A stretch of DNA of 64,000 nucleotides from a virus, in IMG/VR virus record IMGVR_UViG_3300036766_000678, positions 96,001 through 160,000 of that record. One strand, 5' to 3'. Made by a program: the position numbers and the translations under genes. This document shows positions 5,038-63,256 of this stretch, one piece after another. Below the pieces are notes generated by a model, which was not told the DNA's origin, did not search any database, and worked only from the letters and a program-made list of their open reading frames with translations. How positions within the stretch are numbered: position 1 is the stretch's first letter; each line of letters begins with the position of its first letter.

Positions 5038-5283
5038 TTATCTTGGAGCCATATTCTCATTCATTTGTGTATAGATAAAATCAAGCAACTTCTGATATCT
5101 GCCGAGTTTCAACATGGAAATAGGCGACATATTCCCAAGTAGTGGGTTTGTGCATATCATCCAGAATTTCGATTTCGATTCGTCATGGAAGAACATAGTG
5201 TCAATTGCTTTTAAAATAGTATTATAGTGGCACTCATAAAGAATTTTGTCAAATCTAGGACTTTGATTTTTGCTTCGTTTCAT
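5038..5283 (-). CDS. MbcA/ParS/Xre (DUF2384)-like antitoxin C-terminal domain protein
   Basis: FWMICTNPLLGNMSPISMLKLG resembles the W...PN..LGG..P..LL..G pattern. Confidence 0.5.
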   Translation of the reverse strand: MKRSKNQSPRFDKILYECHYNTILKAIDTMFFHDESKSKFWMICTNPLLGNMSPISMLKLGRYQKLLDFIYTQMNENMAPR

Positions 5284-5509
5284 ATTTCCTCTCTAAGTAT
5301 TCTAAATTATCTAAAGGAAGCCATTTTCTACATCTACATCCTTCATTCCAATTCTTACAATGTGCCCAAGGCATTCTAGATTCTGTTATTTCTTCTAAAT
5401 CTTCAGGAGTAATATCTTTAATATCTATTTTACGCCAATGTTCATGGCCGCAGGTACGGCAACATCTTTCATCTAAACCAACAAAACTATATGGTACTTT
5501 TCTTAACAT
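5255..5509 (-). CDS. small Cys/His protein, NLEYLE family
   Basis: CRTCGH...C.C..WLPLDNLEYLERKY. Confidence 0.75.
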   Translation of the reverse strand: MLRKVPYSFVGLDERCCRTCGHEHWRKIDIKDITPEDLEEITESRMPWAHCKNWNEGCRCRKWLPLDNLEYLERKYETKQKSKS

Positions 5510-5657
5510 ATAGATATTCGAGGTATTCTAGATTGTCACTGGGGACCCAATCGTTACAAGCATTTTCAATATAAGTGCTATGTAGATCATGGTAAAATCC
5601 ACATATACGACACCGTGGGTTATTAGTTCTAAATTTTAACTTCTTTTTTCTTTTCAT
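5487..5657 (-). CDS. small Cys/His protein, NLEYLE family (56 aa, not in ORF track)
   Basis: Hand translation: MKRKKKLKFRTNNPRCRICGFYHDLHSTYIENACNDWVPSDNLEYLEYLYVKKSTI*. Confidence 0.75.
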   Translation of the reverse strand: MKRKKKLKFRTNNPRCRICGFYHDLHSTYIENACNDWVPSDNLEYLEYLYVKKSTI

Positions 5658-5859
5658 ACAGAAATTCTAAATACTCAAGATTGTCAGATGGAACATACTG
5701 CATACACCATGGTTTATAAACACCACCTAAAATCCTTGCAGCTACAGCAACTCGTTCACGTTCACATGGTAGCATTTGACTTAATCCATGACAATCATCA
5801 TGCCCACAAACTCTACAGGAACTATTGAACATTTTTCTGCTCATTGATATGGGCTTCAA
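5629..5859 (-). CDS. small Cys/His protein, NLEYLE family
   Basis: CRVCGH...CMQYVPSDNLEYLEFLY. Confidence 0.75.
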   Translation of the reverse strand: MKPISMSRKMFNSSCRVCGHDDCHGLSQMLPCERERVAVAARILGGVYKPWCMQYVPSDNLEYLEFLYEKKKEVKI

Positions 5860-6916
5860 TCTGATTTACACAGGCTTTAACGTCTTTTTTAATTTCATGC
5901 TCCCAAAAACGGAAGACTTTGTAACCACATTTTGTTAAATAAGCATTCTGAGATTTATCTATAGCCCGACGTTTGGCAATACCTGCAAATTCATTTACCT
6001 TATGCTCTAAACAACCATGCCAGTAACAGCCATCTGAAAAAATAATAATTTTATATTCTTCAATAACTGCGTCAACTAAAAATTTATTAAATAAAACTTT
6101 TTGGGTTTCAAAAGGAATATTTCGTTTTGTTAATTCTTCTTCAATAGCCACTTCAATTTTTGTATGATCAAATTTAGAAGCACCAATCCAAGCCCATTTA
6201 TCAATTTCACCAGAAGCAATAAGTCTTTTTCTAGTTTTAGATTGTTTCTTAGCTGCTTTTGCAATAATAGGACTATCTTCTTTTGTTAATCCAGAATTCC
6301 ATCCTGCTCCTGGACCAAATGCATTACCAAATTTTTCAATGTGTGTTTGTTGACTTTTCTCCTGTCTAGCTTGAATTTGCTCAGGAGTCATAAAATAATC
6401 AGGACGTTTTAATTTGCCTTCTGCAAATAGTTTCTTACGGGATTCTGATAGATTTTCAGCATTAATTTTTATACGAGGATCTGTCTCTTTTGTATGGCCT
6501 TCGTTCCAATTCAAATTACTACGATTATAAGAACCTTCTTGTTCAAAACCATTTCGTCTTAAATGCCCTTCTAAAATATGGCGAGAAATATTTAATTCAG
6601 CGGCAACATCTGTCATATTACTATTTTTAACTTTATCAATTAACTCTTGCACATTTAAAGATTCAATCCAACGAAATCTCTTTTGCAATCTACGAGCACT
6701 CCCATTTTCAACTCGTTTTGCATCAGCTTTTAATCGAATAGTTGCGTAATCTTGTTGAATATTGAAATGTTCTTTTAATCGCTTAATAATAACAGACCCG
6801 CATTTCCACTTTTTCAATAAAATAGAATAAGATTCAACAGTAAGTTCTTCTTTTAGAAGTTCTTTATTTGGGTACTCATCTAAAATTCGTTGAAATGTAG
6901 TATACATACCTATCAT
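5822..6916 (-). CDS. Vsr/DUF559-like (EDxHD-type) endonuclease, probable free-standing homing endonuclease
   Basis: FLVD.....IIIFSDGCYWHGC...D..QNAYLTKCGYKVFRFWEHE; W(N)xG.TKE repeats; start moved downstream of the promoter. Confidence 0.8.
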   Translation of the reverse strand: MIGMYTTFQRILDEYPNKELLKEELTVESYSILLKKWKCGSVIIKRLKEHFNIQQDYATIRLKADAKRVENGSARRLQKRFRWIESLNVQELIDKVKNSNMTDVAAELNISRHILEGHLRRNGFEQEGSYNRSNLNWNEGHTKETDPRIKINAENLSESRKKLFAEGKLKRPDYFMTPEQIQARQEKSQQTHIEKFGNAFGPGAGWNSGLTKEDSPIIAKAAKKQSKTRKRLIASGEIDKWAWIGASKFDHTKIEVAIEEELTKRNIPFETQKVLFNKFLVDAVIEEYKIIIFSDGCYWHGCLEHKVNEFAGIAKRRAIDKSQNAYLTKCGYKVFRFWEHEIKKDVKACVNQIEAHINEQKNVQ

Positions 6917-6920
6917 TATA

Positions 6921-6949
6921 AATATATCATAAAAAGCATTATTTTGCAA
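6921..6949 (-). promoter_or_regulatory. sigma70-like promoter
   Basis: TTGCAA-17 bp-TATATT with TG extension, immediately upstream of the endonuclease ORF. Confidence 0.55.
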
Positions 6950-6971
6950 TGCCTTTAATCATTGTTATCTA

Positions 6972-61471: not shown

Positions 61472-61804
61472 CTAAGCCTGCGGTGGAATAACCTCTGGTA
61501 TTACCAGAACTTCTACTTGAACTGGAGTATTAGTTACTTGTTGTACCTGCTCTGTTGTTGGTTTAATAATCTCTGTTTGGGCTTTCTTTTGGGCATCTTC
61601 GGCTTGAGCTTGCATTTTAGTGATTGTAGCTCCAATCTCCGCTGTAAGTTCTTCTTGGGTAAATGTACCTTTAGTAATTAACAGAGCTTGAATAGCTGCT
61701 CCACGGATTTCTTGCCCAGTAAAAGCTAAGCGTACTGAGTTCTCTAACATTTGAATGTATTGCTTCATTTGATTCATTTCACGAATGATAGTTTCGTCAC
61801 GCAT
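61472..61804 (-). CDS. hypothetical protein
   Basis: 110-aa helical ORF. Confidence 0.5.
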   Translation of the reverse strand: MRDETIIREMNQMKQYIQMLENSVRLAFTGQEIRGAAIQALLITKGTFTQEELTAEIGATITKMQAQAEDAQKKAQTEIIKPTTEQVQQVTNTPVQVEVLVIPEVIPPQA

Positions 61805-61805
61805 T

Positions 61806-62279
61806 TTATTTTATCCTTTTATTCTTTTTATGTTTCTTATCATATTCATTTTCTAAATATTCGAGGTTATCACGATCTTCTGGTTTGGCACATACATTAC
61901 AGCTACAGTAATACCAACCCTGTCCACGAATTTTACCTGGGGTTCCACATGTCTCGCAAGTTGTTATTGATTTCTTTTCTGCGTCTCTTTCAATTTTGTC
62001 AAACCCTGGGGGATACGTGGTAAAATATAAGCGGAGCCCACCAAATTTTTCCTTTATCTGTGAAAATCGTGGCATCCAATCTCTATCTGCATTTGGATTG
62101 TCTTTAAGCCATTTTTTAATCAAAGGTTCAGCTTTTTGACAGGCATCATGGATAATTTGGTACCAACCATCATTACATTCGCAACCAAATCCCATAAGAG
62201 ATTGTGTTAATGGTTTATTAACATCCCCAAAACATAGAGGAAAATCTTTAACTAATTGTTTTTCTAATTCATTCCTCAT
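61806..62279 (-). CDS. phage hypothetical protein (QIKEKFGGLR type) with an appended NLEYLE motif
   Basis: QIKEKFGGLRLY...TCETCGTPG...; ends DRDNLEYLENEY. Confidence 0.65.
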   Translation of the reverse strand: MRNELEKQLVKDFPLCFGDVNKPLTQSLMGFGCECNDGWYQIIHDACQKAEPLIKKWLKDNPNADRDWMPRFSQIKEKFGGLRLYFTTYPPGFDKIERDAEKKSITTCETCGTPGKIRGQGWYYCSCNVCAKPEDRDNLEYLENEYDKKHKKNKRIK

Positions 62280-62467
62280 TTTGGTATCTTTATACAGTCA
62301 ACAAGTCTTCGACCATTTAATCCATTATATTCTGCTGAACATTCACACTCAGGACAAGATTGATACCCTGAAGGCATTTTACTTGCTTCGATTTCAAATT
62401 CTTCAAAGAAGTGCTTACATGTAAGCTGGGTACAAAGATATAACCAGCCTTTCTTTTTCTTTTTCAT
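62276..62467 (-). CDS. small zinc-ribbon protein
   Basis: CTQLTC...CPEC. Confidence 0.5.
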   Translation of the reverse strand: MKKKKKGWLYLCTQLTCKHFFEEFEIEASKMPSGYQSCPECECSAEYNGLNGRRLVDCIKIPK

Positions 62468-62468
62468 A

Positions 62469-62933
62469 TTATCTCCTCACAATATTCTTTACATTATCTA
62501 CTATAAGTTTGCCGAGGCAGTGATCTATTTCATGTTGTACTATACGACTATCGAAGCCATCAAATCGAAATTGAACTTTTTCTCCATTAAGTAATTGACC
62601 TTCAACTTCTACAATTTTATATCTTTTCACTCTAACAGAAATACCAGGACTGCTCAAGCAGCCTTCTACTTGAGTATCCTTATCCTTCTTACTATATCTG
62701 ATAATCCTTAAATTTGCAAGTATCATTTGTTTAGTTTTATTCTCAACACTAAGAATACAAAGATTCTTATTTACTCCAATCTGTGGTGCGGCCAATCCTA
62801 CGCCATGATTAATTATCATTGTTTCTAACATGTCTTGAACTAACTGATTTAGCTCTTCACTATTAAAATTAGTAACCAGTTCTGTTGGTTTATGCAATAC
62901 TGGATCTGTAAAGAGCCTAATGGGTCTCAGCAT
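62469..62933 (-). CDS. def: peptide deformylase (short, lacking the C-terminal helix)
   Basis: GVGLAAPQIG, EGCLS, QHEIDH. Confidence 0.95.
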   Translation of the reverse strand: MLRPIRLFTDPVLHKPTELVTNFNSEELNQLVQDMLETMIINHGVGLAAPQIGVNKNLCILSVENKTKQMILANLRIIRYSKKDKDTQVEGCLSSPGISVRVKRYKIVEVEGQLLNGEKVQFRFDGFDSRIVQHEIDHCLGKLIVDNVKNIVRR

Positions 62934-63087
62934 ATAAATATTCTAAATAAGCTAAATTTCCGCAGGGACGGTAGTTATAGCAACAGCTAATGCCATCTGT
63001 TGGGCAACTTGTACAATACATAGAAAAAGAATCATACTTTTCATGTTCTTCAAACTTACAGCCACATTCACACGGTCTTTTTATCAT
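62917..63087 (-). CDS. small Cys/His protein, NLEYLE family (56 aa, not in ORF track)
   Basis: MIKRPCECGCKFEEH...CCYNYRPCGNLAYLEYLYAETH*. Confidence 0.75.
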   Translation of the reverse strand: MIKRPCECGCKFEEHEKYDSFSMYCTSCPTDGISCCYNYRPCGNLAYLEYLYAETH

Positions 63088-63256
63088 ATAGATATTCTAG
63101 ATATTCTAAATTAGATAGTGGAATATAAAACATACTATCTTTTTCACAATTTGTTCCAGTGTCTGGAAAACACCAGTTTGCGGCATTGAAACTGGGACCT
63201 CCGATTAGACAGTGCTTCTTTAATAATTGGTTACAATTTTTACAAGGTCTTTCCAT
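63068..63256 (-). CDS. small Cys/His protein, NLEYLE family
   Basis: PCKNC...FYIPLSNLEYLEYLY. Confidence 0.75.
   Translation of the reverse strand: MERPCKNCNQLLKKHCLIGGPSFNAANWCFPDTGTNCEKDSMFYIPLSNLEYLEYLYDKKTV

Follow-up and report, generated by a model that had tools for sequence, protein, structure and literature searches.

Phage morons and the PeSL cassettes of T4-type phages are small accessory genes that lie between resident genes and whose repeated boundaries permit shuffling; they bring their own promoter and/or terminator in intergenic DNA. We analysed here a window of 64,000 nucleotides (nt), bases 96001-160000 of a single 180,416-bp virus record (IMGVR_UViG_3300036766_000678, 94% complete) of an uncultured phage, which carries a family of small zinc-finger-like proteins ending on the motif NLxYLExxY. 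At many junctions of this family the codon of the last tyrosine, TAT, forms together with the following G an ATG that starts the next gene in the +1 frame. As with morons and PeSL cassettes, these are small accessory genes inserted in a large phage, with repeated boundaries and modular gain and loss; in contrast to them, there is no intergenic DNA, the boundary repeat is a coding motif plus a start codon, and promoter-like and terminator-like sites are not enriched.

Co-directional gene pairs coupled by termination-reinitiation at ATGA or TGATG overlaps have been described (Huber et al. 2019, PMC6728339; PMC10666635). The junctions of the window are similar in that the genes are co-directional, the downstream start lies within the upstream open reading frame (ORF) and there is little or no own ribosome-binding site. 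They differ in that the overlaps are 17-59 nt and not 4, 1 or 8, so that all 12 window junctions lie outside the stop-start distance of -8 to +6 nt applied to ATGA/TGATG pairs. Moreover, the start is fixed to a protein motif and not to a stop codon, it lies in the +1 frame (NAT-G), and a single gene family shows this layout about 20 times. The nearest precedent for such long overlaps is the coat-lysis overlap of phages fr and MS2. As summarised in PMC10666635, the fr start lies 34 nt before the upstream stop and shows weak intrinsic initiation (Adhin and van Duin 1990), and ribosomes that had just ended translation close by were proposed to be needed for lysis expression. Judged by that summary, both cases share a start tens of nt upstream of a stop (17-59 here), with weak intrinsic initiation in fr and no Shine-Dalgarno sequence at the starts here; the difference is that fr/MS2 represents a single regulatory case in a small RNA phage, whereas the junctions here recur in a large DNA phage and are linked both to the motif of a protein family and to the gain and loss of genes, any dependence on termination being hypothetical. 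Integron cassettes are comparable as promoterless single-gene units arranged head-to-tail behind upstream signals, in arrays whose length varies among relatives. Unlike them, the units here are bounded by a coding motif that overlaps a start codon, their copies are old paralogues and not exchangeable cassettes, and no tyrosine integrase is found (PF00589 had no match in the 180-kb genome and matched 14/14 control genomes). An attC-like structure was not evident either, the junctions being direct-repeat-like and the folding of the start regions ordinary, although no attC model was run and inverted repeats were not searched. The arrangement can be seen as a variation on two known themes, the overlap and coupling of genes and the modular shuffling of genes in phages.

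We favour, with moderate confidence, the notion of a family-wide dual-coding junction devoid of a Shine-Dalgarno sequence, probably translationally coupled, which doubles as a recombination module. The next gene would start inside the free tail of the upstream member, in the +1 frame, via a NAT-G dicodon, and the usual start would be the earliest place that coding allows, that is, the last motif codon: Tyr TAT-G in our genome, and His CAT-G, Asn AAT-G or Ser AGT-G (as GTG) in relatives. Ribosomes already engaged on the upstream small ORF would serve these Shine-Dalgarno-less starts. Since about 40 co-oriented junctions share the motif, the ATG and A-rich second codons, recombination between neighbours could add or drop whole genes and would each time leave the gene behind with a functional start. 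If a family gene came to lie between a resident Shine-Dalgarno sequence and its ATG, it would take over the ribosome site and give the resident gene its own TATG. Cassette-like behaviour might therefore arise without a dedicated insertion enzyme.

The family proteins are 55-115 amino acids (aa) long, with the layout M-x(3-10)-C-x(0-2)-C-x-H...H, then ...C...CxC, and end on [PS]xDNLxYLExxY plus a short charged tail. The C-terminal helix (DNLxYLExx-hydrophobic) follows the Cys/His-rich body; constraint reaches the last motif residue, and the tail beyond is free. A profile built on the motif detected 41 members in the genome, every one on the minus strand and 22 of them within the window; a degenerate member at 57195, missed by the profile, was added by its Cys/His pattern and motif remnant, giving a genome total of at least 42. 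For comparison, a degenerate DNA pattern for P-x-D-N-L-E-Y-L-E retrieved 35 loci of uncultured viral contigs, and the large relatives G001 (192 kb, complete), G002, G003 and G005 (= L086, a 70,394-bp record) were compared whole. The five-genome counts given below cover our genome and these four, whole or partial, with 134 members; the relatives hold 30 (G001), 39 (G002), 14 (G003) and 11 (G005). The closest syntenic contig, L001, shows about 62% protein identity. Searches of GenBank phages (megablast, tblastn) returned nothing useful and no close relative, and a metagenome scan with the trypsin-like gene of the window returned no relative.

Start function at the motif end is more frequent than expected. 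Genome-wide, 32/41 profile-detected members read TATG, and 22 of these 32 TATGs open an ORF of at least 40 codons (all 22 have 43 or more), against 58 of 216 +1-frame ATGs situated among the final 20 codons of other genes (p = 7e-6; 11/46 for the TAT-G subset of these controls). The initial annotation had asked whether the TATG-start rate merely equals that expected from YD/YE usage and normal gene overlap, and it exceeds expectation. Under one first-ATG rule applied to family and other gene pairs, an overlap of more than 10 nt with the next gene was found in 22/38 family pairs vs 37/268 other pairs (p = 1e-8). On a further relative, the starts in independent public gene annotations fall into this frame, too.

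These starts are also set apart by their translation signals. The usual Shine-Dalgarno sequence of this genome is of the AGGAG type and shows up as a peak of G between -12 and -8. Of the junction starts, only 1/22 follow a core of at least 4 nt, compared with 126/285 other starts (p = 1.6e-4), and the five genomes together give 6/44 vs 563/1157 (p = 2e-6). At the junction of the conserved 216-aa gene (26239-26889), relatives carry a purine-rich TTGGAA or GAGTGGGAA. Where the last motif codon is not a start, the AGGAG of the next gene lies inside the tail, or the member has an ATGA ending; an ATGA-type ending is found at 7 other family members genome-wide. A Shine-Dalgarno sequence encoded by the Leu-Glu codons was considered as a general signal and rejected, TTA-GAA being dominant and GAG occurring at 6/22 start junctions vs 2/19. 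Since no ribosome site is seen and the start lies within a translated ORF, the junction starts are probably coupled to translation of the upstream small ORF. Coupling was one of two options in the initial annotation, and the absence of Shine-Dalgarno sequences fits it, the dependence itself being what we infer from sequence.

Comparison with the relatives indicates that the constrained element is the start codon, not the tyrosine. In G001, G002 and G005 the motif mostly ends on Leu, Ser, Ala or Val, and Tyr, Asn and His, which have NAT codons, are almost confined to NAT-G starts of long +1-frame ORFs. In these three genomes Tyr is last at 11/16 start junctions (the rest being Asn or His) vs 5/64 non-start members (p = 1.3e-6), and an orphan xATG occurs in 1/64 non-start members. 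Among the relatives, 24/26 xATGs at the motif end open long ORFs. Long ORFs begin with an ATG at the last motif codon in 21/40 members of our genome and in 9/30, 6/39, 8/14 and 1/11 members of the relatives; when GTG (after Ser AGT) and TTG are counted too, the last motif codon is a start in 12/30 (G001) and 12/39 (G002). The remaining overlapping starts cluster at +4, +7 and +10 nt, in the +1 frame throughout, a frame explained by coding because an ATG in the +2 frame would need Cys, Trp or TGA in the tail. Tyr marks the ATG junctions because it is the sole hydrophobic residue with a NAT codon. The causal direction that had been proposed initially, from tyrosine to start, thus appears partly reversed: in relatives the tyrosine is there because of the ATG, and Asn AAT-G and His CAT-G do the same.

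The 216-aa gene was followed by an unbiased search with its protein alignment, which found 23 loci at 41-62% identity. A family member has its last codon on the ATG of this gene in 17/21 informative loci (TAT 16, CAT 1), and the ATG keeps its place on the motif end although the N-terminus of the protein differs by 1-2 codons between loci (MTNW, MEKNW, MSETNW, MTDQNW). One locus, L061, is an empty site with an AAAGG site. Another contains a relic junction (L052:2940-2994, plus strand), in which a stop replaces the first motif half of the member upstream of the 216-aa gene. Its last 16 nt (TTAGAGTGGGAATATG) are unaltered before the 216-aa gene, which suggests that this stretch also serves as the gene's initiation region.

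The junctions of the window, in which the slash marks the end of the motif, are the following.

5255..5283 (-): tail ..LEYLERKY/ETKQKSKS of member 5255-5509 over the start (ATG 5283) of the 81-aa gene 5038-5283
5487..5509 (-): tail ..YLEYLY/VKKSTI of member 5487-5657 over the start (ATG 5509) of member 5255-5509
5629..5657 (-): tail ..YLEFLY/EKKKEVKI of member 5629-5844 over the start (ATG 5657) of member 5487-5657
26831..26889 (-): tail ..YLELKY/DQLGRK.. of member 26831-27118 over the start (ATG 26889) of the conserved 216-aa gene 26239-26889
27099..27118 (-): tail ..YLEYLY/DKQNI of member 27099-27311 over the start (ATG 27118) of member 26831-27118
28795..28826 (-): tail ..YLEWCY/ERKESTSSL of member 28795-29040 over the start (ATG 28826) of member 28605-28826
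29000..29040 (-): tail ..YLEHLY/DKKERSKDPSAF of member 29000-29344 over the start (ATG 29040) of member 28795-29040
47859..47893 (-): tail ..YLEQLY/EFNQEKKLPL of member 47859-48065 over the start (ATG 47893) of member 47696-47893
57173..57195 (-): tail ..DNLAFFKQIY/ERKLSL of a degenerate member ending at 57173, over the start (ATG 57195) of member 57001-57195
59408..59427 (-): tail ..YLERLY/ESRHE of member 59408-59593 over the start (ATG 59427) of the 97-aa gene 59134-59427
62917..62933 (-): tail ..YLEYLY/AETH of member 62917-63087 over the start (ATG 62933) of peptide deformylase 62469-62933
63068..63087 (-): tail ..YLEYLY/DKKTV of member 63068-63256 over the start (ATG 63087) of member 62917-63087
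58612..58649 (-): TATG ending member 58612-58893, tail ..FLEWKY/GKLEKKNETTR, in frame with clpP
61806..61843 (-): orphan TATG; two more orphans lie in the window at 57548 and 29371

All 13 coordinates that had been listed for start-forming or in-frame TATGs proved correct: each is TATG on the minus strand, TAT being the last Tyr of ...NLxYLExxY, and at 12/13 this ATG comes first among the start codons of an ORF of 56-216 aa in the +1 frame. The G is kept, as had been observed, when the next residue is Val (5509, GTT) or Ala (62933, GCT), and it is kept with Gly (58649, GGG) as well. The orthologue of the 5283 junction reads AAT-G (Asn) in L011, and G003 has an empty site there; the 27118 junction is kept in L001, G001 and G003. 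At the three orphans of the window, Tyr-Asp/Glu follows the motif and the +1 frame closes after 4-10 codons; the gene that comes next begins farther along, with an AGGAG or ATGA of its own. In L001, the orthologue of the member at 29371 reads Tyr-Asn at the orphan position.

The residues after the Tyr had been described as the neighbour read out of frame, and their length agrees with this. The tail has a median of 7 codons vs 5 for the read-through expected at any gene start, a difference that is not significant; the tails thus behave as a passive out-of-frame reading of the neighbour, and selection on tail length was ruled out as a candidate.

Several observations indicate that the junction ATGs are real starts and not artefacts of the ORF finder. 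The Pfam deformylase profile PF01327 aligns from residue 3 of the ORF at 62933 (E = 1.5e-45), which makes this ATG the true deformylase start, and the 216-aa protein from 26889 aligns with seven orthologues from residue 3. At most other junctions the next in-frame ATG/GTG/TTG is at least 20 codons on or absent, and its use would remove the conserved Cys/His motif. Indeed, members 5487-5657 and 47696-47893 have no in-frame start besides 5657 and 47893, respectively, and member 62917-63087 begins MIKRPCECGC with its next start at codon 22. The case of clpP is different: its ORF 57999-58661 (-) offers the TATG at 58649 and an ATG at 58628, and the ORF finder lists TTG 58661. In four relatives the clpP orthologue begins MKPxD/MKNNKD, behind an AAGGAG and +19 or +22 from the end of the motif; in our genome TTGGAG precedes the second ATG at 58628. 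Given these orthologue starts and the TTGGAG, the clpP start is most likely 58628; the TATG at 58649 is in frame with clpP, as claimed, and is probably not its start.

The opposite view is that Tyr-Asp/Glu is simply a protein motif, that the +1-frame TAG makes the TATG the first ATG of its frame and that the true starts lie downstream. Indeed, the codons used for Leu-Glu, TTA/CTA-GAR, contain a TAG when read in the +1 frame, and a TATG that follows is then automatically the first ATG; TAT makes up 83% of all Tyr codons of the genome; ten TATGs are orphans; and clpP, perhaps with two genes outside the window, is better started at a later ATG with a Shine-Dalgarno sequence. TAT at the motif end (40/41) is only mildly unusual (p = 0.0045), and a TAT constraint in non-start members was examined and rejected (18/19, not significant against the genomic 83%). 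We nevertheless consider this coincidence very unlikely, given the deformylase and 216-aa alignments from residue 3, the lack of an alternative start ahead of the Cys/His motif in most downstream ORFs, and the relatives, in which 24/26 xATGs open long ORFs and Tyr, Asn and His switch while the ATG stays. Still less credible, and in our view extremely improbable, is a programmed +1 frameshift at the motif end that would join each family protein to what the following ORF encodes. In favour of such a fusion, the downstream ORF always lies in +1 and lacks a Shine-Dalgarno sequence; but an initiation codon is conserved (ATG, or GTG after AGT) while the first codon base varies between T, C and A, no slippery or hungry-codon context is conserved and the flanking codons vary, the +1 frame is already explained by the codon constraints (+2 needs Cys, Trp or a stop), and in relatives the start shifts to +4 or +7 with no common shift site.

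The second aspect of the junctions is that they mark where genes are gained or lost. Across positions 26200-29600 of the window, L001 shows the same genes in the same order except for the 81-aa member 28795-29040, which it lacks, and the L001 junction is a chimera, reading as the 29040 junction through ATGATAAAAAG and as the 28826 junction from GAAAAGAAAG on. Before the 81-aa gene 5038-5283 there are no members in G003 (58-nt spacer), one in L011 and three in series in our genome, and in the latter two an endonuclease-like gene precedes the member(s). The L011 junction is a chimera as well, which opens like the first junction of our genome (ATGAAAAGAAAAG) and continues into the resident gene. 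In both chimeras the switch falls on A-rich codons no more than about 12 nt past the ATG. A cassette ending exactly at T/ATG had been proposed initially: the junction holds as a boundary of gene gain and loss, whereas the breakpoints lie up to about 12 nt 3' of the ATG. In the same region, a 364-375-aa gene (5822-6949, minus strand) stands before the three-member array and an HNH-type endonuclease ORF (4600-5013, minus strand) after the 81-aa gene; at the syntenic site of G003 the large gene 5822-6949 and the family members are jointly absent. An endonuclease-associated insertion may have brought family genes along at 5038-6949.

Member numbers vary at other sites. Before the 216-aa gene there are two in our genome, L001 and G001, four in G003 and one in G002. 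A gene for a trypsin-like peptidase (27931-28596, minus strand), whose N-terminus (..LSSSSC..) resembles that of lipoproteins, separates two family arrays and is kept in all relatives; the family genes before it number 0 in G002, 1 in G001, 1 in G003, 3 in L001 and 4 in our genome.

Empty sites, the existence of which had been put forward as a check, were found in relatives at the 144-aa, 75-aa and 119-aa genes and at L061, the resident ATG and its own Shine-Dalgarno sequence being kept. The 144-aa gene (outside the window) reads ...ACGGAGAATAGTC/ATGAAGAAAAAG without a member in G005, G003 and G001 and is likewise memberless, with a different leader, in G002. Our genome reads ACGGAGAAT-GTAAGTG, then the member, and ...CAATTAT/ATGAAGAAAAAA; the GTG starts a 66-codon member on the resident ribosome site. 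As both closer (G005, G003) and more distant (G001, G002) relatives are memberless, an insertion in our phage's own lineage is the economical reading. A donor was sought among the paralogues and none was identified, the best being just 44% identical. The 75-aa gene shows the same layout when compared with G003: a terminator-like hairpin, conserved between the two genomes, is placed just upstream of the ribosome site (our genome ~172270-172330, reverse strand; G003 ~106540-106600), and the site behind it is used by the inserted member in our genome and by the resident 75-aa gene in G003. At both the 144-aa and 75-aa sites the family gene thus sits exactly between the resident Shine-Dalgarno sequence and the ATG. 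Upstream of the 119-aa gene (MRVIIAGSRTIT), the family member is absent in G001, G002 and G003, where a non-family gene ending ..C-V-[SQ]* overlaps the gene in a TTA-TGC-like register; in G005 (reverse strand ~55190-55260) a member is joined in the other register, Leu-Cys TTA-TGC, compared with TAT-G in our genome.

The junctions may be similar enough to recombine. Over 41 junction windows of 48 nt, pairwise identity is 58% vs 30% in controls, and 83/820 pairs share exact in-register runs of at least 12 nt, the longest being 22 nt. These shared runs and the direct orientation make neighbouring junctions plausible substrates for unequal recombination. The copies themselves are ancient paralogues: within-genome best scores do not exceed 45 bits, many members match other genomes better than their own, many sit at orthologous positions in relatives, and members lying side by side do not resemble each other more than distant ones do (25 vs 22 bits), which rules out recent tandem duplication. 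With paralogues so old and no integrase in the genome, the proposal of an actively inserting unit could not be upheld. At genome positions 176245 and 7793 (minus strand, outside the window), we observed two copies of a two-gene module consisting of an FKxDNLKYLE-type member with tail ESRT.. and a gene beginning MNLEL..., which suggests that member and downstream gene were duplicated jointly.

Several points weigh against the combined notion of a coupled, recombining junction. Ten orphan TATGs in the genome show that Tyr-Asp/Glu also occurs without start function, and the enrichment of TATG starts over the base rate is about 2.6-fold, not absolute. Efficient termination-reinitiation is reported mainly for overlaps of -4/-1/-8 nt, long overlaps being usually uncoupled (PMC10666635), and RNA accessibility at junction starts (predicted unpaired probability, folding energy) is the same as at other starts. 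Crossover within the junction repeats rests on two chimeras, from genomes at only about 60% protein identity; recent paralogue copies and an identified donor are lacking, so that recombination would have to be slow, and most indels cannot be polarised. Use of the junction ATGs, like any coupling, is something we infer.

A compaction-only explanation can also be considered, although we regard it as unlikely. Deletion pressure would have moved starts upstream to the tolerated limit, with no role for coupling or recombination, and the indels would be ordinary gain and loss that look tidy since untidy ones are lethal. This agrees with starts heaped at the motif end and decaying over +1, +4, +7 and +10, with passive tails, with a 119-aa gene pressed onto the motif in two registers (our genome and G005) and with a genome that is 94% coding; but it leaves the near-total loss of Shine-Dalgarno sequences at exactly the junction starts and the two chimeras of neighbouring junctions unexplained, for a saving of merely ~20-40 nt per gene. 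In the other direction, it is possible, though doubtful, that the junction is a purpose-built cassette boundary, whereby genes would be recruited between a resident ribosome-binding site and ATG by microhomology of the Tyr-Asp/Glu-Lys tail (TATGAnAAR) with Met-Lys-rich gene starts (ATGAARAAR), the ribosome-binding site would be captured and the resident gene would become obligatorily coupled. If so, arrays would be chains of serially coupled ORFs fed from one ribosome site, and the phage would possess a route to accessory genes that needs no new expression signals. A self-mobile cassette with a dedicated start-codon-targeting mechanism, integron-like or homing, is highly improbable. Two insertions exactly between Shine-Dalgarno sequence and ATG, the many HNH endonucleases and inteins of the genome, which could stimulate exchange, and the joint absence of endonuclease-like gene and members in G003 at 5038-6949 speak for it. 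However, the cassettes are ~200 nt long, overlap coding sequence on both sides and encode the small protein alone, with no enzyme; a tyrosine integrase is absent from the genome; in one array (26000-29700) promoter-like sites number 9 vs 16.6 expected from shuffled sequence and terminator-like sites 3 vs 2.0, hence not above expectation; the RNA folding of the start regions is ordinary, inverted repeats not having been directly searched; and the deep divergence of the paralogues, with no recent copies and many members at orthologous positions, does not suggest mobility.

The dual-coding junction, if confirmed as the working unit, would show how some 40 small accessory genes can be accommodated in one large phage without intergenic DNA or expression signals of their own, one repeated coding motif providing the protein end, the next start codon and the homology for addition or loss of whole genes. 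It would offer a concrete case of long-overlap, Shine-Dalgarno-less initiation occurring about 20 times in one genome, and bears on the dispute over whether a bacterial ribosome is able to reinitiate some tens of nt before a stop. When this family is annotated, NAT-G starts that lie 17-59 nt inside the upstream gene should be accepted by gene callers, and the conserved 'terminal Tyr' should be read as partly a nucleotide constraint and not as a protein constraint alone.

Concerning the proteins themselves, Pfam and PHROGs hold no family for these small proteins, a text search for the motif returned unrelated words only, and a profile search of 1.84 billion representative proteins gave 767 small proteins at E <=0.001. 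An AlphaFold model of one member has low confidence (predicted local distance difference test, pLDDT, 65) and was not used for fold searches; it places the motif within the C-terminal helix. The window as a whole has a G+C content of about 34%, with nearly all genes on the minus strand, and encodes a T4-type terminase domain, inteins, HNH endonucleases, clpP and peptide deformylase. A 1281-aa ORF (42309-46154, minus strand) has a 2'-5' RNA ligase superfamily domain at residues 847-943 as its one Pfam match. Intein splicing, Hint, LAGLIDADG and HNH domains are present in two further large ORFs, 21530-26236 and 29534-33523 (both minus strand; 1568 and 1329 aa).

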